In this document: in pieces, positions 4,701 to 51,872 of the stretch
Layout of the letters: the number at the start of each line of letters is the position of its first letter
Numbering within the stretch: the first letter of the stretch is position 1
Translations under genes and position numbers: made by a program
Source of the DNA: an uncultured Candidatus Saccharibacteria bacterium
GTDB taxonomy: Bacteria > Patescibacteriota > Minisyncoccia > Phycocordibacterales > PALSA-1337
Length of the DNA: 64,000 bases
Reading direction: 5' to 3'
Assembly: GCA_964394505.1 (NCBI GenBank)
Contig: CAYMXR010000001.1
Location: forward strand, 9,878 to 73,877
The notes under the pieces: generated by a model
The model's database searches: none
What the model saw: the letters and a program-made list of their open reading frames with translations, nothing else
What the model was told of the DNA's origin: nothing

Positions 4701-4952
4701 AAACCATTTGCACGCATTTGACAGTCATGCTATACTATTGTCGTCAAGTAACTGTTCGCCCACCGGCGAACATGTTTGTTAAAAGGGAGAATGTTTAGTG
4801 CAAAGTGTAAAGTTTTAGTTAATAGTTGATATTTATTATATTAAAATACTATACTGACTCAAAAAACTTAACGCCTTTCCACCACAACTTTGCATTTTAC
4901 ACTTTGCACTTTTCACTTACAATACAATTTAATAAAAACTAAATATAAGAAC

Positions 4953-6113
4953 ATGTTTGATCTAAAAGTAATTAATTCAGTAGTTCAACAATTAGAAGAA
5001 GAACGAGGTATTCCAAAAGAAAAGACACTGGAAGCCATCTCCATGGCCTTTGCTACTGCTTACAAAAAAGAATACGGCAAGAAAGGCCAGATTATTCGCG
5101 CTTCATTTGACCAAAACTCTGGTGCTGTTGAATTTTGGCAGGTAAAGATAGTAGTTGACCATGATCAAGTGATCATGGAAGGCGATGAAGATACTCAAGA
5201 AAATCTCAAAGAGACTGCCGTAGAAGACATCAAGATCCGCTTCAACCCAGAACAACACATTTTCATCGAAGATGCGCGCAAGATAAAGAGAGAAGCGATC
5301 ATCGGTGATGAATTGGTTTTTCCACTTGAGACAAAAGCTGATTTTGGTCGCATCGCCGCTCAGACAGCAAAACAAATCATCATCCAAAAGATTCGCGAGG
5401 CTGAAAAAGTCTCGGTTATGAGCGAATACGGCCAAAAAGAAGGTGAAATTGTCGCTGGAATAGTCGAAAGAGTCGAAAGGGGTGTCATATATATAGATAT
5501 GGGACGAGCGATTGGTGTTATTCCTTACGAAGAACAGATCCCTAGCGAACATTGGAAAACTGGTGACCGTATTCGCGCCTATCTCTTTGCCGTTGAAGAG
5601 ACACCAAAAGGCATTGTCCTCAAGCTTTCTCGCGCTCATCCAAAATTCCTCGCAAAACTATTTGAAACAGAGACCCCAGAGATTGCCTCCGGTGTTGTTG
5701 AGATCAAAAATGTTGCCCGAGAAGCAGGATCGAGATCGAAGATTGCAGTTATTTCTCATGATTCACATATCGATCCGATCGGATCCATGGTTGGTCAAAG
5801 AGGTGTACGCGTAACAACAGTTACCAGCGAGCTTTCTGGTGAAAAGATAGATATTGTCGAATGGAATGAGGATCCTGCTCTATTTATTGAGGAAGCCCTC
5901 TCTCCTGCCGAAGTTGTTTCTCTAGAATTAGATGAAAAAGAACATCGAGCTATAGTTACCGTCACCGAAGATGAGCAATCATTAGCAATCGGTAAGGGTG
6001 GCCAAAATGTCCGCCTTGCCGCCAAACTCACCGGCTGGAAGATTGATATCAAGTCAATTGGAGGAATAGAAGAGTTGGATTTACCTGAGAATGCTGAAGG
6101 TGTAGAGAAATAG
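4953..6113 (+). CDS. nusA: Transcription termination/antitermination factor NusA
   Basis: MFDLKVINSVVQQLEEERGIPKE N-terminus, S1 and KH regions; the track start at 4890 is extended and the ATG at 4953 is used. Confidence 0.9.
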   Translation: MFDLKVINSVVQQLEEERGIPKEKTLEAISMAFATAYKKEYGKKGQIIRASFDQNSGAVEFWQVKIVVDHDQVIMEGDEDTQENLKETAVEDIKIRFNPEQHIFIEDARKIKREAIIGDELVFPLETKADFGRIAAQTAKQIIIQKIREAEKVSVMSEYGQKEGEIVAGIVERVERGVIYIDMGRAIGVIPYEEQIPSEHWKTGDRIRAYLFAVEETPKGIVLKLSRAHPKFLAKLFETETPEIASGVVEIKNVAREAGSRSKIAVISHDSHIDPIGSMVGQRGVRVTTVTSELSGEKIDIVEWNEDPALFIEEALSPAEVVSLELDEKEHRAIVTVTEDEQSLAIGKGGQNVRLAAKLTGWKIDIKSIGGIEELDLPENAEGVEK

Positions 6114-13495: not shown

Positions 13496-15025
13496 ATGTC
13501 ACTAAAACTAGTCGCACTATATCTCTCCATCGCCGGAGTAGTCGGTGTAGCTATTGGTTACTATCTGCGACTGATCATCTCTTTAGGCAAAAAGGGTTCC
13601 ATGGAACTCGAAATAAAGGAAATGCTCCTTGCTGCCAAAGAAGAAGCAAAGAAGATCACCGCAGATGCTGAAGCCAAAGCCACAAAGACTCACGATGATG
13701 CGAGATTAGAAATAAAAGAGAAAGAGGATAAAATTCATCAGACCGAAGACCGTCTCGCAAAAAGAGAGGATCTTTTGGATAAACGTCAGTCAGATATAGA
13801 CAAAGAAGTAGAGTTGATCAAACAACGCGTAGCAGAGATAAAAGCTATTCGTGAAAAGACAGACAAACTCGAAGAAGAAAGAAAGGCTTCCCTAGAAAAG
13901 ATTGCTAAACTTTCCGCCGAAGAAGCGAAAGAGCAACTTTTTAAACTTGTAGAAAAACAATCCGAGGAAGACATCTTTATTAGAATGAACAAACTAGAAT
14001 CTCAGGGCGAGGAGATGTTGGCTCAAAAGGCTCGCGACATATTGGCAATATCTATACAAAGACTCGCTTCATCGGTTGCACAAGATGTCATGTCTACATC
14101 CTTAGAGATTCCAAGTGATGATGTAAAAGGCAAGATTATAGGAAAAGAAGGTAGAAATATCAAAGCTTTCGAACGTATTACCGGTGTTGAAGTCATGGTT
14201 GATGACACTCCGGGAGCGATTACCATTTCTTCATTCGATCCCGTCAGGCGTCATGTTGCAAAAATGGCTCTAGCAGAACTCATCAAAGACGGTCGTATCC
14301 AACCAGCCAAGATTGAGCAAGTTGTAGAAAAAGCAAAGCAGGATATAAACAAAACTATTAAAGAAAAAGGCGAACAAGCTGCTTACGATTGTGGAATTAT
14401 TGGCTTAGATCCTAGAATTCTCCTTATCCTAGGCCGTTTACACTTCAGAACAAGTTATGGCCAAAATGTCTTACAGCACTCCATAGAGATGGCGCATATA
14501 GCTGGCATGATCGCCGAGGAACTTGGTGCAAATGTTCAGGTAGCCAAGGCTGGTGCCTTATTACACGATCTAGGCAAGGCCCTTGACCACGAAGTGGCTG
14601 GAACTCACGTCGAGATAGGTAGACGCATCCTACAGAAGTTTGGAGCCGGAGAAGAGATCATAAAAGCTATGCAAGCTCATCACGAGGAGTATCCTTATGA
14701 GACGGTAGAATCACGCATAGTCCAAACCGCAGATGCTATCTCTGGAGCAAGACCAGGAGCAAGACGGGATAATATAGAAAACTACCTAAAAAGACTTGGT
14801 GATCTAGAAGCCCTAGCCAATTCATTCCCTGGTATCGAAAAGTCCTATGCCCTACAAGCAGGCCGTGAAATCCGTATCTTCGTGAAACCAGAGGACATCG
14901 GTGATGTAGAAGCAAAGACTTTGGCTCGAGATATAGCGCTCAAAATCGAGAAAGATCTCAAATACCCAGGTGAAATCAAGGTTACGGTTATACGAGAGCT
15001 TAGAACCATCGAGTTCGCGAGATAA
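13496..15025 (+). CDS. rny: Ribonuclease Y
   Basis: N-terminal TM, coiled-coil, KH domain (GKIIGKEGRNIKAFE) and HD domain (LLHDLGKALDHE). Confidence 0.9.
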   Translation: MSLKLVALYLSIAGVVGVAIGYYLRLIISLGKKGSMELEIKEMLLAAKEEAKKITADAEAKATKTHDDARLEIKEKEDKIHQTEDRLAKREDLLDKRQSDIDKEVELIKQRVAEIKAIREKTDKLEEERKASLEKIAKLSAEEAKEQLFKLVEKQSEEDIFIRMNKLESQGEEMLAQKARDILAISIQRLASSVAQDVMSTSLEIPSDDVKGKIIGKEGRNIKAFERITGVEVMVDDTPGAITISSFDPVRRHVAKMALAELIKDGRIQPAKIEQVVEKAKQDINKTIKEKGEQAAYDCGIIGLDPRILLILGRLHFRTSYGQNVLQHSIEMAHIAGMIAEELGANVQVAKAGALLHDLGKALDHEVAGTHVEIGRRILQKFGAGEEIIKAMQAHHEEYPYETVESRIVQTADAISGARPGARRDNIENYLKRLGDLEALANSFPGIEKSYALQAGREIRIFVKPEDIGDVEAKTLARDIALKIEKDLKYPGEIKVTVIRELRTIEFAR

Positions 15026-20182: not shown

Positions 20183-20563
20183 TTACAAAATAATATTCTC
20201 TATCATCCTCACTTTTGCTTTTTTTGTCTCAAAATTGAGGTACACGCATATTACATGAAAAGCGAACTCAATTTCAAGTCCTTTATCATTTTCATCAAAA
20301 TAAGTTTGAACCATCTTGCGTATTTGCCTGATTTTCCAATTATCCACATTCTCTTCTGGTTTATGTCCATTGATAACAGTCGGACAATTGGAGACACTTT
20401 TGACTTCAATAAAGTGAATGAGACTGTCTTTGTTGGCGATAATGTCTATTTCACCCCATCTTTTCCTATAGTTTCTAGTTTCAATACAAAAACCATTTTT
20501 AACTAGATATTCACAGGCTATTCTTTCTCCAATTTCCCCTATTTTGCGTGTATTTTTGGTCAT
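20183..20563 (-). CDS. yraN: YraN-family (UPF0102) endonuclease
   Basis: GEIGERIACEYLVKNGFCIETRNYR...GEIDIIA...IHFIEVK motif pattern. Confidence 0.75.
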   Translation of the reverse strand: MTKNTRKIGEIGERIACEYLVKNGFCIETRNYRKRWGEIDIIANKDSLIHFIEVKSVSNCPTVINGHKPEENVDNWKIRQIRKMVQTYFDENDKGLEIEFAFHVICVYLNFETKKAKVRMIENIIL

Positions 20564-20596
20564 TTTTAACGCATTTAAGCCATTAAAGTCGTCTTT

Positions 20597-20626
20597 TATT
20601 CACATAATCCCCAAGCTTATCCACAG
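20597..20626. promoter_or_regulatory. Two DnaA-box 9-mers (TTATTCACA at 8/9, TTATCCACA at 9/9), 12 bp apart, 34-63 bp upstream of yraN
   Basis: Direct match to the TTATCCACA consensus. Confidence 0.35.
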
Positions 20627-20746
20627 TTGTCCATTACGAAATACTATTTTGAGCCATATATTACAGACAACAACTTTTCTTGTAGATAATAGAAAAATTC
20701 AAAATTGCAGAGCCACAATAGGCTTTCTTTGAGACTAACTTCCCTG

Positions 20747-20817
20747 TGCGGGTAGGGAGAATCGAACTCCCACCTCGTCCTTGGCAAGGACGCGTCCTAC
20801 CACTAAACGATACCCGC
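20747..20817 (-). tRNA. tRNA-Gly (anticodon GCC); CCA not encoded
   Basis: Anticodon loop TTGCCAA, T-loop TTCGATT, 7-bp acceptor stem GCGGGTA/TACCCGC. Confidence 0.8.
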
Positions 20818-21063
20818 CTACGCAAATTTAGACCTCCGGTCTAAATTCGCTACGGCGGGCAAGCCCGCTTTGTCCGTAGTAATCTAGAACGAATTAATTG
20901 CCTAAATAAGCAACAAAAGAAGTATACCGTAATAATATTTTTTTACAAATCTAAATGTGCTGGCACTACTACACTCCTCGCAAGCTCAGCGCTACGAAGT
21001 GCTGGCACTACGAAGCCCTACATCGCGCACCAGCACACTGGTGCGCGATTGCGGGCGAAGTAG

Positions 21064-21135
21064 TGCCCTCGGAGGGACTCGAACCCCCAACAGCGGTTCC
21101 GAAGACCGATGTGATATCCATTTCACCACGAGGGC
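21064..21135 (-). tRNA. tRNA-Arg (anticodon UCG); CCA not encoded
   Basis: Acceptor GCCCTCG/CGAGGGC, perfect D-stem, anticodon loop CTTCGGA, T-loop TTCGAGT; one mismatch at the base of the anticodon stem. Confidence 0.6.
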
Positions 21136-21806
21136 GCATTACCATAATACTGTATTAATAGCTTTTGCCAAGCTCTCATAAGCCTAAAAACATAAACATC
21201 TGCAACACTTAATCCCATACAGCCCTTATAATCAGGGTTTTTCTTGACAGTATGCTTGGTCGGTTTGTATATAGTTTTCATGAAAAGACCTGGCTCTAAG
21301 CCCAATTTACCTGCCCAAAATAATTCAATATTTTCATATCCAGGAACTTTGTGAATAAAAAGTCTGCATTTTATTCTTGCTTTTTCTATTTTCAAAAATT
21401 TTTGAACCCAATTGTGCATAAAGATGACCATGTCCGGATCAGAGTTAACAAATTGGAAAACACTGTGCTTCTTGGCCCCTTCGGCCCAATACAATGCGAT
21501 ACCAATCAAAAAACGCTGATCTTTCATATTATCCGCAAAAATCCTCTTTGCATCTTCAAAAGCTACAATCTCCCTAGCAAGTCTTTTTTGCCTGTTTGTA
21601 GCCGACGATTTTATTATTCCAGCTCCCCTAGTTCCAACCATTTTCGAAGCTATCCTTTCTTTTTCTTCAGTGGTAAGTACCAAATCTTTGAACCAATATG
21701 AAAGCAAACCCTTTGAAACTGGTACGATTTTGGCTATTTCAGAGTAAGTCATACCCTGTTTTCGTAGCTCTATTGCTTGATTTTTATCCATTAACCTAGC
21801 TGTCAT
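21123..21806 (-). CDS. HTH-domain protein of unknown function; possibly a homing-endonuclease-like or mobile-element remnant (LIGIALYWAEG resembles a degenerate LAGLIDADG motif)
   Basis: N-terminal helix-turn-helix (AIELRKQGMTYSEIAKIVPVSKGLLSYWF); the 3' end overlaps tRNA-Arg by 13 nt. Confidence 0.3.
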   Translation of the reverse strand: MTARLMDKNQAIELRKQGMTYSEIAKIVPVSKGLLSYWFKDLVLTTEEKERIASKMVGTRGAGIIKSSATNRQKRLAREIVAFEDAKRIFADNMKDQRFLIGIALYWAEGAKKHSVFQFVNSDPDMVIFMHNWVQKFLKIEKARIKCRLFIHKVPGYENIELFWAGKLGLEPGLFMKTIYKPTKHTVKKNPDYKGCMGLSVADVYVFRLMRAWQKLLIQYYGNAPSW

Positions 21807-21931: not shown

Positions 21932-23416
21932 ATGAAGGAAACAAATCAAGCATTGCCAAATGAAGTCATAAAAGCTGTCGAAACGCTGGAAAAGGCTGGT
22001 TTTGAAGCATATCTAGTTGGTGGCTGTGTCCGTGACATTCTCCTTGGCAGAAAACCAAAAGATTGGGACATAACGACAAATGCCACACCAGACAAAATTC
22101 AATCAATATTTCCAAAAACCGTATACGAAAATACATTTGGTACCGTTGCCATAATAGACGAAAACACTACTGATCCAACTTTAAAAAGTATTGAGGTGAC
22201 ACCATACAGAACCGAATCAGCATACTCAGATAGAAGACATCCTGATGAAGTAAAATTCAGCGACAAGCTAGAAGACGATTTAAAGCGACGAGACTTTACA
22301 GTCAATGCAATTGCTATAAATCTGTCTAATGGGGCAATAAAGGACATTATAGACCTCTACGATGGCATTAAAGACATTAAGTCTAAAACAATAAGGACAG
22401 TCGGAAAGCCTGAGGATAGATTCAATGAGGACGCTCTTCGAATGATGCGCGCTATTAGACTAGCTGTCGAGCTTGGTTTCACGTGTAATCCTGAGACGAT
22501 CTTGGCTATACAGAGCCATAATTTTTTAATGAAGGATGTATCAATCGAAAGAATTAGAGATGAGTTTACTAAGATAATTGTGTCTAGCAACCCAAAATTG
22601 GGGATTGAAATGCTTCGGAATGTAGGTTTACTTAAGCATATCGTTCCGGAATTAGAATCTGGTATGGGTGTAAAACAGCCACAAGCACATATGTACGATG
22701 TTTGGGAACATCTTTTGCGTACCCTTCAACATTCAGCTGATAAGGGTTATGACCTGGAAATGCGACTTTCGGCGCTATTTCATGATATAGGTAAGCCAAA
22801 AACAAAGGACTTTTCACGTGAGACAAATCAACCCACCTTTTATGGCCATGAAGTGGTTGGTTCACGTGAAACACGCAAAATTCTTGAAAGAATGAAGTTT
22901 TCACGTGCAACAATAGAGAAAGTTACGAAATTAGTGCGTTGGCACATGTTTTTTGCTGATCCTGAGCAAATTAGCCTTGCAGGAGTAAGGAGAATGGTTG
23001 CAAATGTTGGGGCAGATAATATCTGGAATCTCATGAACCTCCGAATGTGTGATCGCATAGGGACAGGTAGACCAGTAGAAGATCCTTATAGGCTAAGAAA
23101 ATATAAAGCTATGATAGAGGAAGCTGTGCGGGCTCCTATATCTGTGAAAATGCTTAAAATTGACGGTGCTAAGATAATGGAGTTAACCAAGATTGCTCCC
23201 GGACCAAAAGTCGGAATGATCCTAAACGCCCTCATGGATGAAGTATTAGAAAATCCGGAATTAAATACAGAAGATTACTTGGAGAAAAAATCTCTAAAAC
23301 TTATTTCATTATCCGAAAATGAATTAATTGAACTTGCTCAAAAAGGGAAGATAAAAAAAGATGAAGCTGAGGATGAAAAAATAAAAGAAATTAGAAAGAA
23401 ACATAATGTGAGATAG
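21932..23416 (+). CDS. cca: CCA-adding tRNA nucleotidyltransferase with an HD domain
   Basis: GGCVRDILLGRKPKDWDITT polymerase-beta-type motif; HD motif (HDIGK). Confidence 0.85.
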   Translation: MKETNQALPNEVIKAVETLEKAGFEAYLVGGCVRDILLGRKPKDWDITTNATPDKIQSIFPKTVYENTFGTVAIIDENTTDPTLKSIEVTPYRTESAYSDRRHPDEVKFSDKLEDDLKRRDFTVNAIAINLSNGAIKDIIDLYDGIKDIKSKTIRTVGKPEDRFNEDALRMMRAIRLAVELGFTCNPETILAIQSHNFLMKDVSIERIRDEFTKIIVSSNPKLGIEMLRNVGLLKHIVPELESGMGVKQPQAHMYDVWEHLLRTLQHSADKGYDLEMRLSALFHDIGKPKTKDFSRETNQPTFYGHEVVGSRETRKILERMKFSRATIEKVTKLVRWHMFFADPEQISLAGVRRMVANVGADNIWNLMNLRMCDRIGTGRPVEDPYRLRKYKAMIEEAVRAPISVKMLKIDGAKIMELTKIAPGPKVGMILNALMDEVLENPELNTEDYLEKKSLKLISLSENELIELAQKGKIKKDEAEDEKIKEIRKKHNVR

Positions 23417-23419
23417 GAA

Positions 23420-24000
23420 GTTAGCTATATTTGTAGCCATATACTACTATCGGACATAACATCATCTAGTTATCCACATAATGTCCTTTACACATTTTTG
23501 TATAAGACATAAAATAGTATAAGACCAGTTTGTCATCCGAGGAGATCGCAGAAATTTGTAAGAGAAAAAATATTTGTATTAAAAAATTAAATTCAAATAA
23601 TTTTTTAATTTCATTTACAGATTTCTGCGATCGAGGCAGACTATGTTCTTTATAAAAGTAAGGTAGGCTTCTACTCCTAGTTCGAGTGTGAAGTCGTCTC
23701 GAAACAATTTAGTTTTTGTGTTGACCCTCGTTTGCTTAGGCAAATGACGATGCGCTTGTTCTCACTTTTATTTTAGGCGCCCCCGTGGCGACCATTTAGT
23801 ACGACAACAGTGCGCACCGTCACCTAATGAGGAGACGTCCGGTCAATTTCGGATCCAACTTTTCGGATCCGCGGGTCCAAAAAACCCATTGTTCTTTAGT
23901 TTGTTAGCGTGAAGTCCGCGTTTCGAGAGGACTTAAAAAGCCGCGTGCACCTGTTCTCTCTGAACTGCGTATCACGCGGTTTTCTTTTTGGTTAATTTGA
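23420..24000 (+). other. Structured non-coding region and candidate ncRNA of unknown class. It holds a perfect DnaA box (23470-23478), a 17/18-nt inverted repeat (23541-23560 with 23616-23636), several GC-rich hairpins and a terminator-like stem (CCGCGTG...CACGCGG followed by TTTTCTTTTT near 23938-23998).
   Basis: 580 bp with no credible ORF, locally GC-rich hairpins and a 3' terminator. Confidence 0.3.
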
Positions 24001-24075
24001 GACTCACAAAAATAGGCAATGCGTGTGCATTTATCATATACAATCATGTATACAGTGTAAGTAGTGCCTCCACTT

Positions 24076-24870
24076 CTACCCCATCTCCAAATAAATAGGG
24101 CAGTGGTCACTTCCCATTACACTATCCAAAATTTTAGTACTCTTAACTTTTTTCAAGACACCATCAGTTACAAAGAAATAATCTATTCTCCAACCAACAT
24201 TACGATCGCGGGCAAAGGTTTTCATGTCCCAATAAGTGAATTTACCAGTCTCATCTGGATGCAAATGGCGAAAAACATCGGTATAGCCAGCAGAGACAAC
24301 TTTGTCTAACCAGGCGCGCTCGATAGGGAGAAAGCCGGTATTATCAACATTTTCTTTTGGTCGAGCGAGGTCTATCTCGGTATGAGCGGTATTAATATCT
24401 CCACAAAATATAACTTCATAGCCGTCTTTGCGTAAATTATTTACATATTCCAAAAAATGATCGTAATATTCTAACTTGAACTTCAATCTTTCCGGACCAC
24501 CTCCGCCGTTAGGGAAGTAGACGTTGAGTAGAACAAATTTACCCAATTTATTATCAAAAGCATTTTCATCATAAAATAAAGCCAAAAATCTACCTTCTTG
24601 GTCATATTCATGTTTTCCTAAACCATATTCTACCTTTAAGGGTTTTGCCTTCGAATATACCGCGACACCACTATAACCTTTGCGACCTTTGGAATGATCG
24701 AAATATGAATAGTAGCCAACAGGATTGCGTACACCGTCTTCTAGTTGTTCTGCTTCGGCTTTGACCTCCTGTATACAGTAGATATCCGGCGACTCGCTCA
24801 AAAACCAATCAAAACCACCTTTTTTAATGTTGGCTCGAAAGCCGTTTACGTTCCAGGAAATAATGCGCAT
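24076..24870 (-). CDS. xth: Exodeoxyribonuclease III (AP endonuclease)
   Basis: MRIISWNVNGFRA...; C-terminal SDHCPIYLE. Confidence 0.9.
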   Translation of the reverse strand: MRIISWNVNGFRANIKKGGFDWFLSESPDIYCIQEVKAEAEQLEDGVRNPVGYYSYFDHSKGRKGYSGVAVYSKAKPLKVEYGLGKHEYDQEGRFLALFYDENAFDNKLGKFVLLNVYFPNGGGGPERLKFKLEYYDHFLEYVNNLRKDGYEVIFCGDINTAHTEIDLARPKENVDNTGFLPIERAWLDKVVSAGYTDVFRHLHPDETGKFTYWDMKTFARDRNVGWRIDYFFVTDGVLKKVKSTKILDSVMGSDHCPIYLEMG

Positions 24871-24959: not shown

Positions 24960-25880
24960 TTAGCCACGCTTCTTCCCATGAAACATTTTATGGACCTTTC
25001 GGAGTTCCGCATCAGTCACATGAGTATATATTTGCGTTGTATTTATATTGGAGTGACCAAGCAGCATCTGGACCGAACGAAGATCAGCGCCGTTGGAGAG
25101 TAGGTCGGTGGCGAACAGATGCCTCAAAACGTGAGGCGTAACCTTTTTAGAAATACCGGCTTTGATGGCACAGTATTTGATAATCCTCTCAACCGAGCGC
25201 GGATCGAGAGCTAGATCGCCATTCTTGGCGCTTTCCCGACTTAACCTGATAAATAAGGCGTCATCTACATCTACTCTCTTGTCCAGATATTCTTTTATAG
25301 CTTTCTTTGCTTCAGAAGAGAGAAATACGACACGGATTTTTTCTCCCTTACCTCGAATAGAGAATTCATCTGCATCAAGATCTAGATCACGCGATAGGGA
25401 ACAGAGTTCTGAGACACGCAATCCTGTTGAAAAAAGTAACTCTAGTATGGCTTTATCTCTTAATGATTTCAGGTCTTTGCCATCCGAGGAAGCAAGCAGT
25501 CTTTTTAATTCTTCTCCAGAAATAAGATCCAAATGCCTCTCTCCAACTTTGGCTAGCTCTATATGCTCTGGTGAAAGAGACTTGACCCCTCTCTTTACTA
25601 GGAATTTCAAAAATGCCCTAAGAGCAATCAGGTAATAATTCTGAGTTTTCTTTTTCAGAGTCTTGCTGTCAGGATTTTTACCGCTTGGCTGACGGTTCAA
25701 CCATAGATGAAACTCTCGCACCATTCTATCTGTTATATCTTCGGCTCTTTTTAGCTTGGAATAATCTATAAATCGAGTCAAATAGTGATCATAGTTCCGC
25801 ACCGTAAGCAGAGAACGGCCTTTTTCGATCTCTATATATTCAAGAAACTGTTGTTTTAGATCATGAAGATTTTGCGACAT
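24960..25880 (-). CDS. xerC: Tyrosine site-specific recombinase, XerC/XerD family
   Basis: HVLRHLFATDLLSNGADLRSVQMLLGHSNINTTQIYTHV catalytic region (R..H..R..Y). Confidence 0.85.
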   Translation of the reverse strand: MSQNLHDLKQQFLEYIEIEKGRSLLTVRNYDHYLTRFIDYSKLKRAEDITDRMVREFHLWLNRQPSGKNPDSKTLKKKTQNYYLIALRAFLKFLVKRGVKSLSPEHIELAKVGERHLDLISGEELKRLLASSDGKDLKSLRDKAILELLFSTGLRVSELCSLSRDLDLDADEFSIRGKGEKIRVVFLSSEAKKAIKEYLDKRVDVDDALFIRLSRESAKNGDLALDPRSVERIIKYCAIKAGISKKVTPHVLRHLFATDLLSNGADLRSVQMLLGHSNINTTQIYTHVTDAELRKVHKMFHGKKRG

Positions 25881-28054: not shown

Positions 28055-30205
28055 ATGAATAAAAAAGAATATACGCTCGAGATCGGTTCGAAAACTCTTA
28101 CAGCAGAGTTCAACGATATCACCGATCAGACAAACGGGGCAGTGATGCTTCGCTACGGTAACACCGTCGTCCTAGCCACAGCCGTCATGGGCAAGGAACC
28201 AAAAGATGGTGACTTTTTTCCACTTACAGTCGATTACGAGGAAAGGTTTTATGCCACTGGCAAGATTCTCGGTTCTAGATTTATGCGTAGAGAAGGTAGA
28301 CCTTCGACCGAAGCTATTCTCTCCGGAAGAATAGTCGACCGTACTATCCGCCCTCTCTTCAATCAAAAAATGCGTCACGAAGTACAGGTAGTGCTTACAA
28401 CATTGTCCATAGGCGATGAGGACGCAGATTCTGTTTCGGTTATTGCCGCTTCTCTTGCTCTAGGAACTTCTGATATTCCATGGAATGGACCAGCATCGGC
28501 CATCAGAATTGGAAAAAAGGAAACTTATGTTATCAATCCGGAAACCAAGGACCGTGAAGGTGCAGATGTAGCGTTGGACATGATCGCTTGCGGAAAAGAT
28601 GGCATGATCAATATGATCGAAGTCGGAAGTAAAGAGGTTAGCGAAGAAACAGTAAACGAGGCTCTTGCTATCGCTTCAACAGAAATCGAAAAAATCCAGA
28701 CTTGGCAAAAAAAGATCATTGCAGATATCGGAAAAGAAAAGAAGATTGTCGAATTGCCAGTTGCAACCGAGGGAACAAAAGAATTATTTGAGGCGGAGAT
28801 TGCTCCCAAATTGAAAAAGTATGTCTTCAGTGGTCCAGGGAAAAAGAAATTGGAAGAAATCACCGATGAGTGGATGAAAATATTTATAGAAAAATTCCCA
28901 GAAGGAAATACTGGCATGGCTATGGAAATATTTGAGGAAGCTGTAAACGACTTGCTTCACAATGAAGCGATCGAGAATGACAAACGCCCTGATGGCAGAA
29001 CAATGGACGAAGTCCGGCCACTATTTGCACGAGCTGGTGGCATATCACCAATTCTTCATGGTTCGGGAATATTTTACCGAGGTGGAACGCATGTTTTATC
29101 TATCCTTACACTCGGATCTCCCGGAGATGCTCTTCTCATCGACGGCCTCACCATGCAAGAAAACAAAAGATTTATGCACCACTACAACTTCCCACCATTT
29201 TCGACAGGAGAGGTTGGTCGCATGGGTGGAACAAATAGAAGAATGATTGGACACGGTGCTTTGGCAGAAAAAGCTTTATTGGCAGTCATACCAGACAAAG
29301 ATAAATTCCCATATACAATCCGTCTAGTGTCCGAAGCTTTGGCCTCAAACGGATCAACTTCAATGGGTTCGGTTTGCGGATCTACTCTCGCCCTCATGGA
29401 TGGTGGTGTTCCAATAAAAGCTCCTGTTGCTGGCATTGCATCTGGTCTTATGATGTCACCAAACTTTGCTCGAGACGGTAAATACAAAGTTCTTACTGAC
29501 ATCCAAGGCCCAGAAGATCATCATGGTGATATGGACTTCAAAGTCGCTGGTACTAGAAACGGGATCACGGCGGTCCAAATGGATGTTAAAGTTGGCGGTA
29601 TTCCTCTCAAAATCCTAGCTGAAGCTTTCGTCAAAGCCAAAAATGCCCGATCCAAAATTCTCGATGTTATAGAAAAAGAAATTCCTGCTTCTCGTGAAAA
29701 AATTTCTCCAAATGCTCCAGAAATTATTGTTATGAAAATAAAACCAGATCAGATTGGTTTAGTCATAGGCACTGGAGGCAAAACTATAAATGAAATTCGT
29801 GAGGTTACCAAAGTGGAAGATATAACCATAGAAGACGACGGGACTGTATTTATTACCGGTAAAAATGAAACTGCACAGAAAGCAAAAGATATCATCTATG
29901 GAATGACAAGGGAATATTTACCAGGAGAGAAATTTGACGGGGAAGTAGTCCGACTTATGGACTTCGGCGCTTTCGTAAAAATTGGACCAAATGCCGAAGG
30001 ATTGGTACATGTCTCAGAGATTGCCCCATTCCGCGTGGAAAGAGTTGAAACTTATATCAAGGAAGGGGACATCGTTCCTGTTGCGGTCAAAGAAAAAGAT
30101 GAAAAGGGAAGATTGAATCTATCGATCAAGAACGCAAACCCGACATTCTTTACTAAAAAAGAAGAGATGCCAAAACCAAAGTCAGAGTTTAAGAAAAGGT
30201 TTTAG
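28055..30205 (+). CDS. pnp: Polyribonucleotide nucleotidyltransferase (PNPase)
   Basis: 716 aa; two RNase PH domains, KH and S1 domains. Confidence 0.95.
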   Translation: MNKKEYTLEIGSKTLTAEFNDITDQTNGAVMLRYGNTVVLATAVMGKEPKDGDFFPLTVDYEERFYATGKILGSRFMRREGRPSTEAILSGRIVDRTIRPLFNQKMRHEVQVVLTTLSIGDEDADSVSVIAASLALGTSDIPWNGPASAIRIGKKETYVINPETKDREGADVALDMIACGKDGMINMIEVGSKEVSEETVNEALAIASTEIEKIQTWQKKIIADIGKEKKIVELPVATEGTKELFEAEIAPKLKKYVFSGPGKKKLEEITDEWMKIFIEKFPEGNTGMAMEIFEEAVNDLLHNEAIENDKRPDGRTMDEVRPLFARAGGISPILHGSGIFYRGGTHVLSILTLGSPGDALLIDGLTMQENKRFMHHYNFPPFSTGEVGRMGGTNRRMIGHGALAEKALLAVIPDKDKFPYTIRLVSEALASNGSTSMGSVCGSTLALMDGGVPIKAPVAGIASGLMMSPNFARDGKYKVLTDIQGPEDHHGDMDFKVAGTRNGITAVQMDVKVGGIPLKILAEAFVKAKNARSKILDVIEKEIPASREKISPNAPEIIVMKIKPDQIGLVIGTGGKTINEIREVTKVEDITIEDDGTVFITGKNETAQKAKDIIYGMTREYLPGEKFDGEVVRLMDFGAFVKIGPNAEGLVHVSEIAPFRVERVETYIKEGDIVPVAVKEKDEKGRLNLSIKNANPTFFTKKEEMPKPKSEFKKRF

Positions 30206-31660: not shown

Positions 31661-32023
31661 ATGAATAAAAAAGATTTAGAATATTTCAAAGCTAAATTAT
31701 TGGCAGAGAAATCTCAGTTGGAAGAAGAACTTTCCGAAGTTGCCTACAAAGATCCATCGCTAGCACAAGGGTGGGAGGCTACATCCGGAGGAATGGTTGT
31801 TGATTCTGCAGATGACAATGAAGTTGCCGATAAATTTGAAGAAATGGAGGGTAACAAAGATGTCACTGACAAACTTGCTGTTCAATTGGAAATGGTAAAC
31901 TCTGCTCTAGAAAACATCGATTCAAACACTTACGGTATTTGCCGTACTTGCAATAAGCCTATTGAAAGGGGTCGCCTCGAAGCAAATCCTTCTGCAAAAG
32001 GTTGCGTTGTGCATTCAAGCTAA
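31661..32023 (+). CDS. DksA/TraR-family zinc-finger protein
   Basis: Coiled-coil N-terminus plus C-terminal CRTC...GC motif. Confidence 0.55.
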   Translation: MNKKDLEYFKAKLLAEKSQLEEELSEVAYKDPSLAQGWEATSGGMVVDSADDNEVADKFEEMEGNKDVTDKLAVQLEMVNSALENIDSNTYGICRTCNKPIERGRLEANPSAKGCVVHSS

Positions 32024-37979: not shown

Positions 37980-38085
37980 GCTTTTCACTTGAATACCAAA
38001 AGATCACAGACAGATCTAGAGGGACCGCCCACTGTCCACAGAATATAATAATAAAACTGAGTAATTTGCTATAATTGTGATTAGC

Positions 38086-38973
38086 ATGGCAAAAACCTAC
38101 CCGCAGAAACAAACTTTAGTGATTTTTATTGTTTGCGTTATTTTTGTGGCTGGAACTGCGACTTACATTTACGGTTGGCCCTCAACAAAAAACTCCATAA
38201 AATATAGAAATTCCAGTATTCAGCCACAGATAGTAACAAATAATACCAGTACCGGCCCGGAGTCAGACTGGCAAAATCAATTTATTGATGGCAAAGCTAG
38301 CACAACCTTTAGATACGATCCGGTAACACAGAAGAATCCGAAAGCTGGGGTACCAATAAACCCAACTGAAGAATTGGGTCGGGATTTTTTTACAAAATAT
38401 GTCGAATTAAGACAATCAGGACTTAATACGGATGCCAAGACTGTTGATAATGTGGCTACTCAATTAATTAAGGAAAGTGCCTCCAAAATATCGAAACCAA
38501 AAGCATACACTTCCAAAGATATAACTATTGTTCCTGTGGGAACTGGAGTAAACGCAACAAAAATTTACGCTGAAAATCTAGTGGGAATTCTAAAATCATG
38601 GATGCCTGTCAAAAACGAAGCTGAGATTGCCATGGAGGCTTTCGAGGCGGGAGATATGACTTTGTTAAAAGGCATAGACACTGTAATTGCCGGATACAAA
38701 AACGCTGTAACAAGGTTATTGGAGACACCAGTTGTACAGCCCCTAGCCGAAAGTCATCTTGATCTTATAAACGCTATATCTATGCAGACATTCAATGCTC
38801 AAGGGTTAAGAAATTCTGATACAGATCCACTTACCGGTCTAGCAGCCATAAGCCTGGAAGTAAAGAGTTTGGAAGCGATTGCTACCGCTATAGGAAAGAT
38901 GCAAAGTTACTTTGCTTCATCAGGTATTGTATTTAATCTTCCAGTTTCTGGATCAATTCTTCAAAGCCAATAA
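38086..38973 (+). CDS. Hypothetical signal-anchored protein; first gene of the T4SS-like cluster
   Basis: N-terminal TM LVIFIVCVIFVAGTATYIY. The track start at 38077 is a GTG; the ATG at 38086 lies 10 nt after a TATAAT. Confidence 0.4.
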   Translation: MAKTYPQKQTLVIFIVCVIFVAGTATYIYGWPSTKNSIKYRNSSIQPQIVTNNTSTGPESDWQNQFIDGKASTTFRYDPVTQKNPKAGVPINPTEELGRDFFTKYVELRQSGLNTDAKTVDNVATQLIKESASKISKPKAYTSKDITIVPVGTGVNATKIYAENLVGILKSWMPVKNEAEIAMEAFEAGDMTLLKGIDTVIAGYKNAVTRLLETPVVQPLAESHLDLINAISMQTFNAQGLRNSDTDPLTGLAAISLEVKSLEAIATAIGKMQSYFASSGIVFNLPVSGSILQSQ

Positions 38974-38974
38974 C

Positions 38975-40576
38975 ATGTTCAATAATACAATTAGAAAACT
39001 TCAAAAACCCGTTTCCGTCATAATGATATTATCTGTACTACTAATCTCTGTACCAAAACAAACTTTTGCAATCCTCGGTGCTGGCGATACGGTAGTAGTT
39101 GTTGGAGATGTAAGTCCTACAGGAATAACAAACTTTGTCAATCATACTCTGATCAAACTCAAGGAGTTTGTGCTCGACAAAATGGCCACCATGTTAATGA
39201 AGCAAATATTGCATCAAATGACCATGGAAGTTGTTAACTGGATCAATGGAGGCTTTCAGGGAAGCCCTGCATTTCTCACAAACCCAGGAGCATTTTTTCT
39301 AGAGGCAGCCGATCAAGTAACTGGCGCTTTTTTGGCCACAAACGGCCCACTTTCTTCACTTTGTTCACCGTTTGCCATTGACATCCGATTAGCATTGGCA
39401 CTAAGTAAGACATCTATGCTTAATCAGCGATATACATGTACCCTTGGAAAAATTATCCAGGCACAAAAAAACGGTCCGGATATAATCGTGAACGGACAAG
39501 TTGTTCGCTCTTCTCAGGGTTCTATGAATGGATTCCTGCGAGGAGACTTCAATCAAGGTGGATGGCCTGCATTCATTGCTCTCACGACTGAACCCAAAAA
39601 CAATCCCTACGGGGCTTTCCTGTCTGCTGAAGCAGACTTAAACGCAAGAATAAATGCAAAACAAGCAACAATTAGGGCCGATATCCAGCTCGGCCAGGGT
39701 TTCATGTCATGGCAAAAATGTTCAGACATACCTGGAGGAACAGTTGATGCTGAAGACGATTACCAAGTTAATACAGTAGAAAGTATGGTAGGTGTTGACC
39801 CTTCAATCAACCGAAAGGTTAACAAAGACGGAACGATAACATATCAATCTTGCGAAACCCAGACACCTGGATCTGTCATTGCGGGTACCCTACAAACACA
39901 CCTCAATGTTCCAGTGGTAGAACTAGAGCTGGCAGACGACATAAATGCGATCATAAATGCTCTGTTTACAAAAATGACATCGACAATAATTTCTGGTGGA
40001 TTAGGAGCATTGAGTGGTAATTCTGGTGCGGGACCATCGTACACGCAACAAGTAATAGATGAAATAGGTACGGCACAAGTAGATCAGGGGACTTTGGACA
40101 ATTTACAGAATGATATCGGACCAGCAATTCAGAAAATCGATTCATATGTATCGATTTATAAAAAAGCCATAGAAGTGCTATCAGAAACAAAAAACAAATT
40201 TATGGTCGCCAGAAAATGCTTTAGCGATAAGTCGGCAAGCGAGTACGCAGGAAACAAGTTATCAGAAATTGATCTAATAATAAATTCTGATATCAATACA
40301 TCAATCGCCTCAATTGAGGCAAGTATCGCATCCGCAATGGCAGATAGAAAAAAGCTTGAGGATATGTCTCTTACCCTTGCCGGCACAGGTTCTCCAAAGA
40401 AAGTTCAGGCTCAGGCCGAAAGATACTCCCAATTCGTTCAAAGTGGTGGCTTGGATATTCAGTCAAAAATCCAAGTTGCCGAAACCATGCTTGAAAATGC
40501 CCAGAAAAAAGCCAAAGATCTTGATATGAAGGCCACCTTGTTACAACTTGAGTGTTACAGAATGGTTACACCGTAG
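38975..40576 (+). CDS. Hypothetical secreted protein (signal peptide)
   Basis: MFNNTIRKLQKPVSVIMILSVLLISVPKQTFA; the track start at 38912 is extended. Confidence 0.45.
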   Translation: MFNNTIRKLQKPVSVIMILSVLLISVPKQTFAILGAGDTVVVVGDVSPTGITNFVNHTLIKLKEFVLDKMATMLMKQILHQMTMEVVNWINGGFQGSPAFLTNPGAFFLEAADQVTGAFLATNGPLSSLCSPFAIDIRLALALSKTSMLNQRYTCTLGKIIQAQKNGPDIIVNGQVVRSSQGSMNGFLRGDFNQGGWPAFIALTTEPKNNPYGAFLSAEADLNARINAKQATIRADIQLGQGFMSWQKCSDIPGGTVDAEDDYQVNTVESMVGVDPSINRKVNKDGTITYQSCETQTPGSVIAGTLQTHLNVPVVELELADDINAIINALFTKMTSTIISGGLGALSGNSGAGPSYTQQVIDEIGTAQVDQGTLDNLQNDIGPAIQKIDSYVSIYKKAIEVLSETKNKFMVARKCFSDKSASEYAGNKLSEIDLIINSDINTSIASIEASIASAMADRKKLEDMSLTLAGTGSPKKVQAQAERYSQFVQSGGLDIQSKIQVAETMLENAQKKAKDLDMKATLLQLECYRMVTP

Positions 40577-40591
40577 AGATTCCATTAACCT

Positions 40592-42490
40592 ATGAAAATG
40601 AGATTACTAAAAAAATACATACCGCTCATAATCTGTTTGTTTGTCCTGCAGACGGATTTCGCTTTTGCACAAGGTGATATAGCAAAGATTTTTGCATTTA
40701 CTGGAATTGTTGAATTAGCTGACTCCGTAGTAGCCATATTTGCCAATATGGCAATGACGGTAGCGAGCTGGTTACTCATAGCTGCGGGGTATATTTTGGA
40801 CATCTCCATTCAATTGACTCTAAATATCAAAGGTTTTGTAAAAGCTACACCAGCAATCTTCACGGTTTGGAAAAGTCTAAGAGATATTACTGGTCTATTT
40901 TTCATCTTCTATTTGTTATACGCAGCAATACAGATGATGACTGGCTGGGGAAAGGAGAGTTATGGATCAACAATCAAAAATATTGTTATTGCTGGAGTCT
41001 TGATTAACTTTAGTTTCTTTATTGTCAGTTTTGGTATCGATGTCTCCAACATTACCTCCCAAGCTCTTTACGGTGCGATGGTACCAAACAAAGTTATTGT
41101 AAAAATCGACGAGAATGCCAGTATCCAAACTCTGGTGAGTAATGCAGGCAAGTCAGACATTTCAAATATCTTCATGAACACTTTGCGTATCCAATCGATA
41201 TACGACACAAAAGGAAACAAACTTGGCACAGAGATAGGGAATCCGATCAAAACAACTCTTATCGGCATCACTGGTGTAATAATGATGATTACCACTGCGG
41301 CAAGCTTTATCCTCGCAGCCTTGGCATTTATTGCCCGTCTAGTTATTTTGCTATTCCTCTTAGCATTTTCTTCTATTTGGTTTGCCAGCATGGTGATACC
41401 GCAATTAAAAGAAGCCGGCAGCAAATTCCAAGGCGCTCTTATGTCACAACTGCTTTTTATGCCAGCCTATCTGCTCCTCATGTATGTTGCTTTGTCGATA
41501 ATCAATGGTAGTACCATATTCCGTGCTGGGGTGATAGACGGCGCTGCAGCGGGTATCACCGGATCAAATTGGATAATGCCGTATATTATACTTCTGGTAA
41601 ATTTTGCCATCATAATATTTATTTTAAACCTACCCCTCGTGGTTGCGCTTAGTATGGGTGGTTATGCTACCAGCTGGTTCAAGGGCTCGATAGACAAATG
41701 GGACGCATTGAAGGTGTGGAGGAATGTTGGGGGATGGGCGAAAGATAATGCCTGGAGAGGTACCGGTGGCCGAGTCGCAAGCACATTAGCCAAAAGTGAA
41801 GGCCTTAAGAACATTGCTGCTAAAAGCAAATTTGGCGAGCTTGTCTTAAAAGGAGTGCGAGGTGCCGGTGGAAGTTACGATAAGAAACTTGCTGAACAGG
41901 TTGAAGCGAGAACTAAGTTTGCAGAATCACTTGGTGCAAATGAAGGAGAGATAATTGGAATTAAAAAGAAATACAGATCACTCATAGAAAATGCTCTTAC
42001 ACAAGAAAAGCGGGCAAGATCAATGGGTGACACGGTAGCCGCGGATAGATACAAGGCATACGCTGAAAATCTTAAAAAGCAACTTGGCGTAGACTTAGTA
42101 AATAAACAAAAAGAAAGACAAGTAAGTTATGCCGAAAGGATTTCTGATCCTGGTATTCTTAGTACATATCCTAATTTGTGGACAAAAGTTGCCAGAAAAG
42201 ACAAGGTGGCGGCAGCTAAAATCAATATCGATGTATGGCAAAAACAACTAGATAAGAAAAAAGAGGCTGTAACTAAGATAAAACAAGATCTGGAACGCAT
42301 TAAAACAGATATAAGAAGGGAAAAGGCAGCCCGCGGTGGCGTCGTCAGTAAAATAAATGAGGACGAACAAAACAAACTTGAACAAAAGTTAAAAGAAGCA
42401 ACTACTAACCCAAGTCACGGAGGTGATGTTGATGCGATGGGTACAGACGATCTTCAGGACTTGATTGATCAGGAAAAATTAACTAAATAA
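40592..42490 (+). CDS. VirB6/TrbL-like polytopic membrane protein (signal peptide, ~8 TM helices, C-terminal charged coiled-coil)
   Basis: Topology and size resemble T4SS VirB6/TrbL proteins; no sequence motif is decisive. Confidence 0.45.
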   Translation: MKMRLLKKYIPLIICLFVLQTDFAFAQGDIAKIFAFTGIVELADSVVAIFANMAMTVASWLLIAAGYILDISIQLTLNIKGFVKATPAIFTVWKSLRDITGLFFIFYLLYAAIQMMTGWGKESYGSTIKNIVIAGVLINFSFFIVSFGIDVSNITSQALYGAMVPNKVIVKIDENASIQTLVSNAGKSDISNIFMNTLRIQSIYDTKGNKLGTEIGNPIKTTLIGITGVIMMITTAASFILAALAFIARLVILLFLLAFSSIWFASMVIPQLKEAGSKFQGALMSQLLFMPAYLLLMYVALSIINGSTIFRAGVIDGAAAGITGSNWIMPYIILLVNFAIIIFILNLPLVVALSMGGYATSWFKGSIDKWDALKVWRNVGGWAKDNAWRGTGGRVASTLAKSEGLKNIAAKSKFGELVLKGVRGAGGSYDKKLAEQVEARTKFAESLGANEGEIIGIKKKYRSLIENALTQEKRARSMGDTVAADRYKAYAENLKKQLGVDLVNKQKERQVSYAERISDPGILSTYPNLWTKVARKDKVAAAKINIDVWQKQLDKKKEAVTKIKQDLERIKTDIRREKAARGGVVSKINEDEQNKLEQKLKEATTNPSHGGDVDAMGTDDLQDLIDQEKLTK

Positions 42491-42491
42491 T

Positions 42492-43709
42492 ATGGATTTT
42501 GACTATAAAACAATAGAAGAATCTTTCTCCAAACTACCAACTGAACTTCAGGGTATTTTGACATCTCCACACATTGTAGAGAAAATTAAATCGGTTGCCA
42601 CAAAAAACGGCTTACTTATAGACCAGATGTCTTCATTATTTGATATTACTAGTTATATAATATTGGGTTTGATTCCTGCATCCAAATTTTCAGAAATGCT
42701 GATAAAAGAAACTCAAGTCGACAAAGCAAAATCACTGAAAATTGCCGAGGAAATAAATAAGGAGGTCTTTTCAACAATAAAATCAATGATGCGAGAGAAG
42801 CAGGAAGTGGCTGATTTATCAAATACGCCAATACAACCTGCAATCCCGCAAAATATTAATTTAGATGGGAATGTTTCAACTATAACCAAACCATCCCACA
42901 TCACCGATCTGGAGAAAGCTGGTGGATTCACAATAGAGCATGATATGGGAAACGGGGAAGTGGGACTTGGTAGCGAAGATTTACGGGCAATGCCAATGAG
43001 GGACAAATGGTCTCCGTTTGGGCAAACTATCGTTCCAACACCGACTAAACAAACAGTCGAAGCATCTCCTGTGATTACAAAGACCATTGAGGTACAACAA
43101 CCTATTCCAAAATCAGACAATATTCCAACTGAACCATCAACACCAACCCCAGTCATAATAAAGACGATTGAAGCAAAAGAAACCTTTATCAAAGAGCCAA
43201 TAATATCCAAACTAACAGCTCCTGTCGTTGAAGCGCCTATTCAAAAGACTACAGAAGTGATTGAACAAAAAGTTGAGACAAAAATTGAACCGGAAGTTGA
43301 AGTAAAAGAAGAGGTAGTGTCAACAGTTCCAGACAATCTACCAATAGAGCCAGTCACCTTACCAAAAGCAACAGAAGAATCGCCTATACCAAAAGAGCAG
43401 ATCGTTTTACCAAAAACTGTAGGAGAGCCATCTGTGCCAATAGAACCGGAGAATAACTCGCTAGCAGAAACAATAATCAATCTACGCAGGATTAAAGATG
43501 CTACGCCAAAACCACAAATCGAACAGATGCCAACAATTGAACAGCCAACGAAATCAGAGTCAAACACTAAAAAAGAACAAACACCCCCTCCACAACCCGC
43601 TCCAGAATTAATAGTTCCAGAGAAAATAAAATTAAATCCTGGTATACCAAAACCAATCGAACAGCAAAGACCTAGATCGTCTGATCCATACAGAGAACCG
43701 ATAAACTAA
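42492..43709 (+). CDS. Hypothetical protein with a Pro/Glu/Val-rich repetitive C-terminal half
   Basis: 405-aa ORF translationally coupled to the preceding gene. Confidence 0.4.
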   Translation: MDFDYKTIEESFSKLPTELQGILTSPHIVEKIKSVATKNGLLIDQMSSLFDITSYIILGLIPASKFSEMLIKETQVDKAKSLKIAEEINKEVFSTIKSMMREKQEVADLSNTPIQPAIPQNINLDGNVSTITKPSHITDLEKAGGFTIEHDMGNGEVGLGSEDLRAMPMRDKWSPFGQTIVPTPTKQTVEASPVITKTIEVQQPIPKSDNIPTEPSTPTPVIIKTIEAKETFIKEPIISKLTAPVVEAPIQKTTEVIEQKVETKIEPEVEVKEEVVSTVPDNLPIEPVTLPKATEESPIPKEQIVLPKTVGEPSVPIEPENNSLAETIINLRRIKDATPKPQIEQMPTIEQPTKSESNTKKEQTPPPQPAPELIVPEKIKLNPGIPKPIEQQRPRSSDPYREPIN

Positions 43710-43752
43710 ATTCCTTCGCGAGAAAATGATATTTGCAGTATAATATACACAA

Positions 43753-44181: not shown

Positions 44182-44182
44182 A

Positions 44183-44824: not shown

Positions 44825-44828
44825 AATT

Positions 44829-46643: not shown

Positions 46644-46663
46644 AATTCTGATATAATCTGAGT

Positions 46664-47149: not shown

Positions 47150-47209
47150 GGATGTGTCACATCCCCCCCTTCAATTGATTAAAGTGCGATTTGCCAGTAA
47201 AATATAGCA

Positions 47210-49419: not shown

Positions 49420-49427
49420 AAAAATAA

Positions 49428-51865: not shown

Positions 51866-51872
51866 GCTTCCA

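Follow-up and report, generated by a model that had tools for sequence, protein, structure and literature searches.

A predicted, class-restricted non-coding RNA gene with an unusual promoter and a boxA-like motif between cca and xth of Paceibacteria

The cca-xth gap and its promoter module

The 64,000-nucleotide stretch of contig CAYMXR010000001.1 analyzed here (the window), which is from a Paceibacteria genome, carries cca, the gene for the CCA-adding enzyme (21932-23416, + strand; Pfam PolyA_pol, PolyA_pol_RNAbd and HD), and, convergent with it, the exonuclease III-type gene xth (24076-24870, - strand; Pfam Exo_endo_phos). With stop codons at 23416 (cca) and 24076 (xth), the two genes leave a gene-free gap at 23417-24075. 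Its folding-energy z-score against shuffled sequences was -9.1 (-4.8 for 23640-23995), bearing out a first-pass annotation of this DNA that had noted a gene-free structured region after cca; each of the sequence features listed there was found again at or near the place given for it. The longest open reading frame (ORF) in the gap encodes 68 amino acids and no Pfam match was obtained for any ORF tested. The small ORFs were rejected as genes, being without Pfam matches, and one of 41 amino acids falls in the variable tip of a hairpin described below. The content of the gap is best described as a new, class-restricted non-coding RNA (ncRNA) gene that has an unusual promoter and carries a boxA-like motif. 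No description of such an RNA was found in Rfam 15 or in literature searches.

One unit, 23470-23989 on the + strand, comprises a promoter module, an RNA and an intrinsic terminator. The predicted transcript of about 467 nt extends from 23522 to 23989 (+), its start being placed from the -10 hexamer and a conserved CAGA and its end from the T-run of the terminator. The -35 and -10 hexamers, spaced by 16-18 nt, and a GC-rich hairpin followed by a U-run are both conserved in homologues, as in an independent transcription unit. The conserved promoter and terminator, covariation within the RNA and synteny in 121 loci among the matches listed support the earlier reading of the gap as an unannotated ncRNA. 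We consider it very probable that the gap holds a real ncRNA gene, and the unit at 23470-23989 (+) is predicted to be independently transcribed, structured and non-coding.

The unit opens with a perfect DnaA box, TTATCCACA, which lies at 23470-23478 (+), exactly where it had first been noted. The window contains three perfect DnaA boxes against 0.7 expected, so that one box alone is weak evidence; this box is significant because it is conserved in related loci. Downstream of it lies an operator-like motif, TGTCCTTTACA (23482-23492, +), which contains the -35 hexamer TTTACA (23487-23492), and then an imperfect inverted copy of the operator, TAAGACA, followed by the -10 hexamer TAAAAT (23510-23515; together 23503-23515, +). 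The window promoter is of the sigma-70 type, with TTTACA and TAAAAT separated by a 17-nt spacer and 10 of 12 consensus matches. Since a single scan of the region was no richer in promoter-like sites than shuffled sequences (3 against 3.2), the support for the promoter comes from its conservation.

The family figures in this work rest on 80 cca-anchored genome loci plus metagenome loci among the matches listed. The 80 genome loci, reached through relatives of the cca protein, are all from Patescibacteria, mostly labelled as Paceibacterota, Taylorbacteria, Zambryskibacteria and Wolfebacteria metagenome-assembled genomes. The promoter module is present in 60 of these 80, as a DnaA box with at most one mismatch adjoining TGTCCTTTA; variants of the box in these loci are limited to TTGTCCACA, ATATCCACA and TTATCCCCA. 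Of 173 loci, 158 have a spacer of 3-4 nt between the box and TGTCCTTTA. A metagenome scan for TTATCCACA and TGTCCTTTACA separated by 2-5 nt returned at least 120 loci, with one match each. The best -10 hexamers across 164 loci were TATAAT, TAAAAT, TATACT, TACAAT and similar sequences at a spacing of 16-18 nt, and the hexamer stays in place even in loci without the second arm of the palindrome. The resulting module consensus reads AGTTATCCACA, 3-4 nt, TGTCCTTTACA, about 10 nt, (TAAAGGACA)TAAAAT, 5-7 nt, CAGA.

Further copies of TGTCCTTTA and TAAAGGACA occur in the promoter module. Copies of GTCCWTT and AAWGGAC, in both orientations, are clustered from -30 to +50 relative to the DnaA box, flanking the box and overlapping the -10 hexamer in many loci; over the window (23448-23515) and 150 related loci, TGTCCTTTA as a DNA motif is confined to that interval in both orientations. 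This distribution fits a DNA-binding factor with sites that flank the DnaA box and overlap the core promoter, and the promoter module could aid in identifying the TGTCCTTTA-binding transcription factor. The DnaA box itself is the invariant upstream element of the RNA's own promoter and does not stand in isolation. Promoters regulated by DnaA include those of dnaA and nrdAB in E. coli and of sda in B. subtilis. As in those promoters, a consensus box stands directly upstream of the core promoter of the cca-xth unit; here, however, the box is single, it is flanked by the palindromic TGTCCTTTA, the product is an ncRNA, and binding of DnaA is a prediction. Regulation of the ncRNA gene by DnaA is conceivable on these grounds, with the odds leaning somewhat against it.

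The genomic address of the module is also conserved. Convergent cca and xth enclose it in 121 of 180 module-bearing loci among the matches listed. In 36 of the loci among these matches it follows cca, as in the window, at a median of 18 nt from the stop codon and with the RNA in the same direction as cca; in another 85 it follows xth, at a median of 39 nt, and the RNA is read in the direction of xth. Because the module stands after cca in some lineages and after xth in others, the unit has been flipped inside a conserved gap, and the order promoter-RNA-terminator is retained in both orientations. The best-conserved part of the gap is a stretch of about 50 nt from the DnaA box onwards, which adjoins cca in either orientation. 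Taken with the taxonomy of the loci, the ncRNA gene appears to be specific to Paceibacteria (Parcubacteria, Candidate Phyla Radiation, CPR) and to be located between convergent cca and xth.

Two other readings of the module were rejected. A general promoter motif of the genome does not agree with the occurrence of the full module once per contig, almost always at the cca-xth locus, and a dif/Xer site (a xerC-like gene lies at 24960-25880) does not agree with the frequent loss of the second palindrome arm while the -10 hexamer stays. A weaker second copy of the module, TTATCCACA-GT-TGTCCATTA (20617-20636), was observed in the tRNA cluster of the window, between a UPF0102 gene (20183-20563, -) and tRNA-Gly(GCC) (20746-20817, -). 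Near-DnaA boxes surround it over 20596-20689, namely TTATTCACA at 20596 and TTATCTACA at 20681 on the - strand. The same arrangement recurs in loci L006 (2777) and L007 (4749), suggesting that a composite DnaA-box/TGTCC site is used at two or more places in these genomes. Separately, five metagenome contigs (L102, L105, L110, L123 and L130) end 13-32 nt from the promoter module; sequence common to co-occurring strains may have broken the assemblies there.

Fold and divergence of the RNA

The fold in the window lineage was obtained with RNAalifold and manually placed helices on an alignment of the window subfamily (about 20 loci found by profile). From the 5' end it comprises a hairpin (P1), a second hairpin (P2) and then a stalk (P3) that encloses a covarying domain of three helices and two small hairpins; all helices given here are on the + strand. 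P1 (23528-23641) is built from P1a (23528-23534 with 23635-23641), 91% paired and with 4 of 7 pairs compensatory, and P1b (23544-23554 with 23622-23632), 84% paired and with 8 of 11 pairs compensatory. Its AT-rich tip (23555-23621) is variable and is shortened or absent in relatives. An inverted repeat around an AT-rich loop had been noted at 23541-23636; it was recovered with 24-nt arms (23544-23567 and 23609-23632) that are 88% complementary, and an inner perfect 12-nt pair (23578-23589 and 23598-23609) lies inside it. What the first-pass annotation had missed is that this repeat is the variable tip of the 5' hairpin.

P2 (23666-23695) pairs GGCUUC (23666-23671) with GAAGUC (23690-23695) and is 86% paired; its region includes the conserved GGUAGGCUUC and ACUCC, and its 3' strand overlaps the 5' strand of P3. 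The latter is a long-range helix of 15 nt (23691-23705 with 23920-23934) with 93% complementarity. RNAduplex found it in 13 of 15 family members, with z-scores from -2.5 to -6.0 and compensatory sequence changes, the arms varying between members (for example GAAGCAACGAA/UUCGUUGCUUC and GAAGUCCGU/ACGGACUUC). GAAGUC can pair either with GGCUUC in P2 or with GACUUC in outer P3, so that P2 and outer P3 are mutually exclusive, and a switch between the two is possible in this model. The pair AAGTCC...GGACTT (23913-23935), previously taken for a local hairpin, is present in the sequence; by comparison of the relatives its GGACTT belongs to the long-range P3.

The central structured domain (P4, P5 and P6; 23719-23848) is described by covariance model R1, which scores it at 87.3 bits. 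On alignment A3, made from R1, pairing reaches 87.7% of cells, compared with 36-48% in the slid controls; changes on both sides were seen in 29 of the 32 pairs, and none of 500 shuffles reached the observed values. A GC-rich hairpin singled out in the first pass, GGCGCCCCCGTGGCGACC (GGCGCC...GGCGACC; 23776-23793), corresponds to helix 5 of the covariance model and is supported by covariation, all 8 of its 8 pairs being compensatory. Downstream lie P7 (23850-23856 with 23865-23871; 79% paired, 5 of 7 pairs compensatory) and P8 (23873-23876 with 23884-23887), for which support is weak, with gaps in many relatives. The unit closes with the intrinsic terminator at 23937-23989, where a terminator-like stem and T-run had been suspected (near 23938-23998): its stem pairs 23937-23947 with 23973-23983, has an inner stem GUUC/GAAC, and is followed by a T-run at 23980-23989. 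It is conserved (86% paired, 8 of 14 pairs compensatory), and it probably also ends transcription of the convergent xth, because an A-run precedes the stem.

Between lineages the RNA body is replaced or has diverged beyond recognition, while the promoter, the terminator and an (A/U)GUUCUUUNAAAA motif persist. Model R1 finds the central domain in the window subfamily only, plus two weak matches, and the nhmmer profile and R1 reach about 20 loci plus the weak matches L022 and L151. An all-against-all BLAST of 107 RNAs gave four clusters of 9-10 members, some pairs and 48 singletons. The median of the estimated RNA lengths is 287 nt, and members of about 106-164 nt that appear to be genuine also occur. 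Another subfamily, with an RNA of about 230-280 nt, consists of L095, L108, L109, L115, L120, L135, L136, L157, L168, L169 and L194. There the 3' half of the terminator (e.g. GGGUGGCUUU) can also pair with AAAGCCACCC about 70 nt upstream, with matching changes between loci, and the terminator is directly preceded by a conserved CUGCUCCUUUUU; a switch or a second, alternative long-range helix may be involved.

The boxA-like motif

The most conserved element at the RNA level is a boxA-like motif, to which the first-pass annotation had not drawn attention. Its first copy, GUUCUUUAUAA (23645-23655, +), agrees with 10 of the 11 positions of GYTCTTTAANA, the gamma-proteobacterial boxA consensus (PMC5725501), which may not be that of the host. 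A second copy, GUUCUUUAGUU (23891-23901, +), agrees with 9 of 11 positions of the same gamma-proteobacterial consensus and is conserved in the window subfamily. Among 156 non-redundant loci, 120 have GYTCTTT within the first 150 nt of the RNA, compared with 2.2% of shuffles, at a median of 46 nt after the predicted start; 62 of the 120 motifs match at least 10 of 11 boxA positions, although the search pattern itself fixes seven of these. Around the motif the consensus reads (A/U)GUUCUUU(C/G/A)AAAA, positions +9 to +11 being A-rich.

The motif is specific to the sense strand (110 sense against 8 antisense copies), and GTTCTT averages 1.03 copies per RNA, compared with 0.11 in shuffles. Its usual place is at 10-30% of the RNA length, and about a quarter of the RNAs have a second GUUCUU at about 80%. 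Copies number one to four, often about 11 nt apart; UC(U/C)UU is enriched 4.5-fold in the first 120 nt, with neighbouring copies mostly 10-12 nt apart. The motif is still present in RNAs of only about 106-164 nt. A leader peptide was rejected as its explanation: AUGUUCUUU resembles a Met-Phe-Phe start behind a Shine-Dalgarno-like AAGGA, but 58 loci read AGUUCUUU and the frames differ.

The segment GTTCTTTGAAAACTGAAT is presumably the rrn spacer boxA of Mollicutes and Firmicutes. It is known as a nested-PCR primer site in the mycoplasma 16S-23S spacer (PMC4312986). In sequence the motif matches both the consensus GYUCUUUAANA and the Firmicutes/Mollicutes type GUUCUUUGAAAA, and in setting it lies on the sense strand in the 5' part of an untranslated transcript. 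As in the boxA leaders of rRNA operons, which are read by NusB-S10, NusA, NusG and SuhB, GYUCUUU with an A-rich tail stands near the 5' end of an untranslated transcript and, in the window lineage, after a hairpin (PMC5725501). A second boxA-like copy lies downstream, as in the 16S-23S spacer, and the long-range P3 encloses a structured RNA in the manner of an rRNA processing stalk, so that the layout (hairpin, boxA, 5' strand of the stalk, structured RNA, second boxA, 3' strand of the stalk, terminator) resembles a miniature rRNA operon. Unlike in rRNA operons, no rRNA follows, the enclosed RNA being lineage-specific and 100-250 nt long; the second copy stands just before the terminator, tandem copies are about 11 nt apart, and Nus binding is predicted from sequence.

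boxA elements outside rRNA are also found on non-coding or leader RNA, upstream of CRISPR arrays and of suhB, where they control Rho termination (Stringer 2020, PMC7665894; Baniulyte 2017, PMC5725501). The long non-coding transcripts of CRISPR arrays are shielded from Rho by boxA, whose consensus differs from phylum to phylum (PMC7665894). The protected cargo in those systems is crRNAs or the suhB mRNA; here it would be the ncRNA itself, and some members of the family are too short to need protection. That the motif works as a boxA is our tentative proposal, and we place it somewhat short of an even chance.

Alternative explanations and proposed role

Searches for a known RNA family gave no candidate. 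At gathering thresholds, Rfam 15 matched four tRNAs only in the whole window; at E<=10 it gave nothing but chance matches of microRNA or hairpin type to the AT-rich stem in 23300-24200, and nothing relevant in 18 homologous loci from other lineages. The covariance models that the first-pass annotation had named for this purpose (RNase P, tmRNA, 6S and SRP RNA) thus matched neither in the window nor in the 18 loci, and ARAGORN detected no tmRNA, with its tRNA-like domain of acceptor and T arm, either in the window or among the first 80 loci. The absence of an Rfam match implies only that the family is undescribed. A strongly diverged RNase P, tmRNA, SRP or 6S RNA missed by Rfam would agree with the size of about 467 nt and the strong promoter, which suit a stable RNA, and with the presence in the window of rnpA, reported at first pass and located at 51536-51931, since rnpB must then exist somewhere in the genome. 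RNase P RNAs of the CPR are moreover diverged, and their detection required thresholds lowered down to 5 bits (PMC8172020); RF00010 and RF00011 matched here neither at gathering score nor at E<=10. By eye, the blocks UCCGAGG and AGGCUUC are in the wrong order and unable to pair as the P4 helix of RNase P (AAGUCCGGG with CCCGGCUU). No Rfam match was obtained for SRP RNA with its domain IV motif, nor for 6S RNA, which forms a rod of about 180 nt opened by a large bubble at its centre, and the covariation-supported fold is branched. The likeness of GCAAATGACGATGCGCTT (23740-23757) to the start of a tmRNA tag, called superficial when it was noted, proved so: it aligns to GGGAAGAATGGCCGTGCAT and similar sequences in relatives, has no conserved frame and lies inside the covarying P4/P5. 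Since the body is not conserved between related genera, as a catalytic core would be, and some members are only about 106-164 nt long, the initial doubt about RNase P RNA and tmRNA was justified and a hidden housekeeping RNA is scarcely credible.

Just as little credence is given to an element that acts as DNA, either a replication origin or a DnaA-titrating site, with the RNA features secondary. In favour of such an element are a DnaA box that is both perfect and conserved, the 21% GC stretch downstream of it, a cumulative GC skew that falls along the window to a minimum at about 24-36 kb and then rises, and the lack of a perfect DnaA box beside dnaA at 52 kb. An oriC, however, has several DnaA boxes and a conserved AT-rich unwinding element. 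At this locus the box at 23470 is the only perfect one within 1 kb on either side, the nearest box with one mismatch being 870 nt away in xth, and the AT-rich stretch is the hairpin tip that relatives shorten or lack. The classic rnpA-yidC/dnaA-dnaN cluster (50.7-54.8 kb) is 29 kb away. The unit flips as promoter-RNA-terminator, and the covariation reflects selection at the RNA level. The gap might also be without function, an extended 3' untranslated region (UTR) and shared terminator of cca and xth with a chance promoter-like sequence, given that only about 18 nt separate the module from the stop codon of cca, or about 39 nt from that of xth, leaving no room for a terminator between, and that the terminator is bidirectional. 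A 3' UTR of this kind is very improbable in view of the 29 of 32 central-domain pairs that are compensatory, of a module of about 50 nt that is better conserved than the flanking proteins (55-60% identical), and of a -10 hexamer kept even where the palindrome is lost.

A more serious rival is a trans-acting regulatory RNA whose body would be no more than a stable scaffold and whose pyrimidine-rich motif (GUUCUUU, or CUCCUUU or CCUCCAC in other lineages) would pair with purine-rich mRNA sites such as ribosome-binding sites, or would titrate a single-strand RNA-binding protein distinct from NusB/S10, such as one of the cold-shock, KH or S1 type. A short conserved element near the 5' end of a variable body and multiple tandem copies of the motif are what such an RNA would show; anti-Shine-Dalgarno-like loops occur in other subfamilies (e.g. 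UCCUCCACC in terminator loops), and the promoter comes immediately after the stop codon of the gene upstream, as for small RNAs of the 3'-UTR type. On the other hand, the window shows no enrichment in AAAGAACA, the complement of the motif (5.8 sites expected and 5 present, 2 of the 5 being the motif itself), the accessibility of the motif is marginally above average, and the A-rich tail after the core fits a boxA better than a generic seed. We regard a trans-acting RNA of this kind as unlikely.

The family was also compared with other ncRNA classes. Like CsrB/RsmZ and 6S RNA, which titrate proteins and are stable and strongly transcribed, these RNAs are structured and combine a repeated conserved motif or shape with a drifting remainder; their motif, however, is pyrimidine-rich and not GGA, they lack a 6S-like rod with a central bubble, and they have no Rfam match. 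With raiA, OLE, ROOL and GOLLD, which are large or medium-sized structured ncRNAs of bacteria, they share a stand-alone gene with its own promoter and terminator, a covarying multi-helix fold and taxonomic restriction, but they match none of these in sequence or structure, the conservation of their body is much lower and their position between cca and xth is fixed.

The overall best explanation, to which we assign a probability of roughly 0.6, is an ncRNA gene that is Nus-factor-dependent or Nus-factor-titrating and under DnaA-box control. The boxA of the nascent RNA would bind NusB-S10 and so assemble a Nus complex, with NusA encoded in the window, on RNA polymerase. Synthesis of the untranslated RNA might then be protected or chaperoned, as for rRNA operons and CRISPR arrays, or the stable RNA might hold Nus factors. 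Expression would be set by DnaA plus a second factor binding TGTCCTTTA.

Several observations weigh against this explanation. Both ends of the RNA were deduced from the sequence. G-U pairs outnumber A-C mismatches modestly (43 against 27), in an alignment fitted to the + strand, so that the strand call rests mainly on the promoter and the terminator. Position 8 of boxA, an A in E. coli, shows no enrichment in A across the family, and the motif is predicted to be barely more accessible than average (0.46 against 0.39 unpaired). For antitermination, a boxA next to the terminator or in RNAs of about 110 nt would be unneeded; these terminator-proximal copies and very short members favour titration or recruitment of a binding protein over antitermination. 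No rRNA genes for a boxA comparison were found in the window or in 200 related loci, and in the annotated parts of the window NusA was seen, with no rho, nusB or rpsJ. Finally, the DNA motif TGTCCTTTA is one base off UGUUCUUUA, the motif at the RNA level, which is confined to the sense strand and to positions downstream of the start. The likeness may be due to chance, or one protein may read both.

A more specific version of the Nus-factor explanation is speculative and, in our view, improbable. In it the RNA would be a dedicated decoy or platform for the NusB-S10 machinery, its promoter gated by DnaA and the TGTCCTTTA-binding factor, so that in minimal-genome bacteria with one rRNA operon the replication status would determine the amount of free Nus complex on which rRNA synthesis and the assembly of ribosomes can draw; the structured, fast-evolving body would do no more than stabilise the RNA.

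The CPR accounts for much of the diversity of bacteria and its members do not grow on their own, and almost nothing is known of its regulatory and structural RNAs. The ncRNA described here is apparently class-wide; its promoter can be recognised, its position in the genome is fixed and its motif is defined. Its locus can be traced at once in existing metatranscriptomes and added to RNA family libraries and genome annotation. Were the boxA reading true, a stand-alone ncRNA would join the transcripts that use Nus factors, offering a way to study how replication (through DnaA) and ribosome production are coordinated in minimal cells.

Other observations concern the surroundings of the gene. Genes for nusA, RNase Y, PNPase and a DksA-type zinc-finger protein are among those at 4890-6113, 13496-15025, 28055-30205, 31661-32023 and 38077-50759. 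PrgI, TraG-like and T4SS-pilin-like genes stand among ORFs without Pfam match in a long + strand block of the window. An ORF of 227 amino acids without Pfam match (21123-21806, -) overlaps tRNA-Arg (21063-21135) by 13 nt; it has an N-terminal helix-turn-helix-like stretch and an LYWAEGAK motif that, by eye, resembles LAGLIDADG endonucleases.

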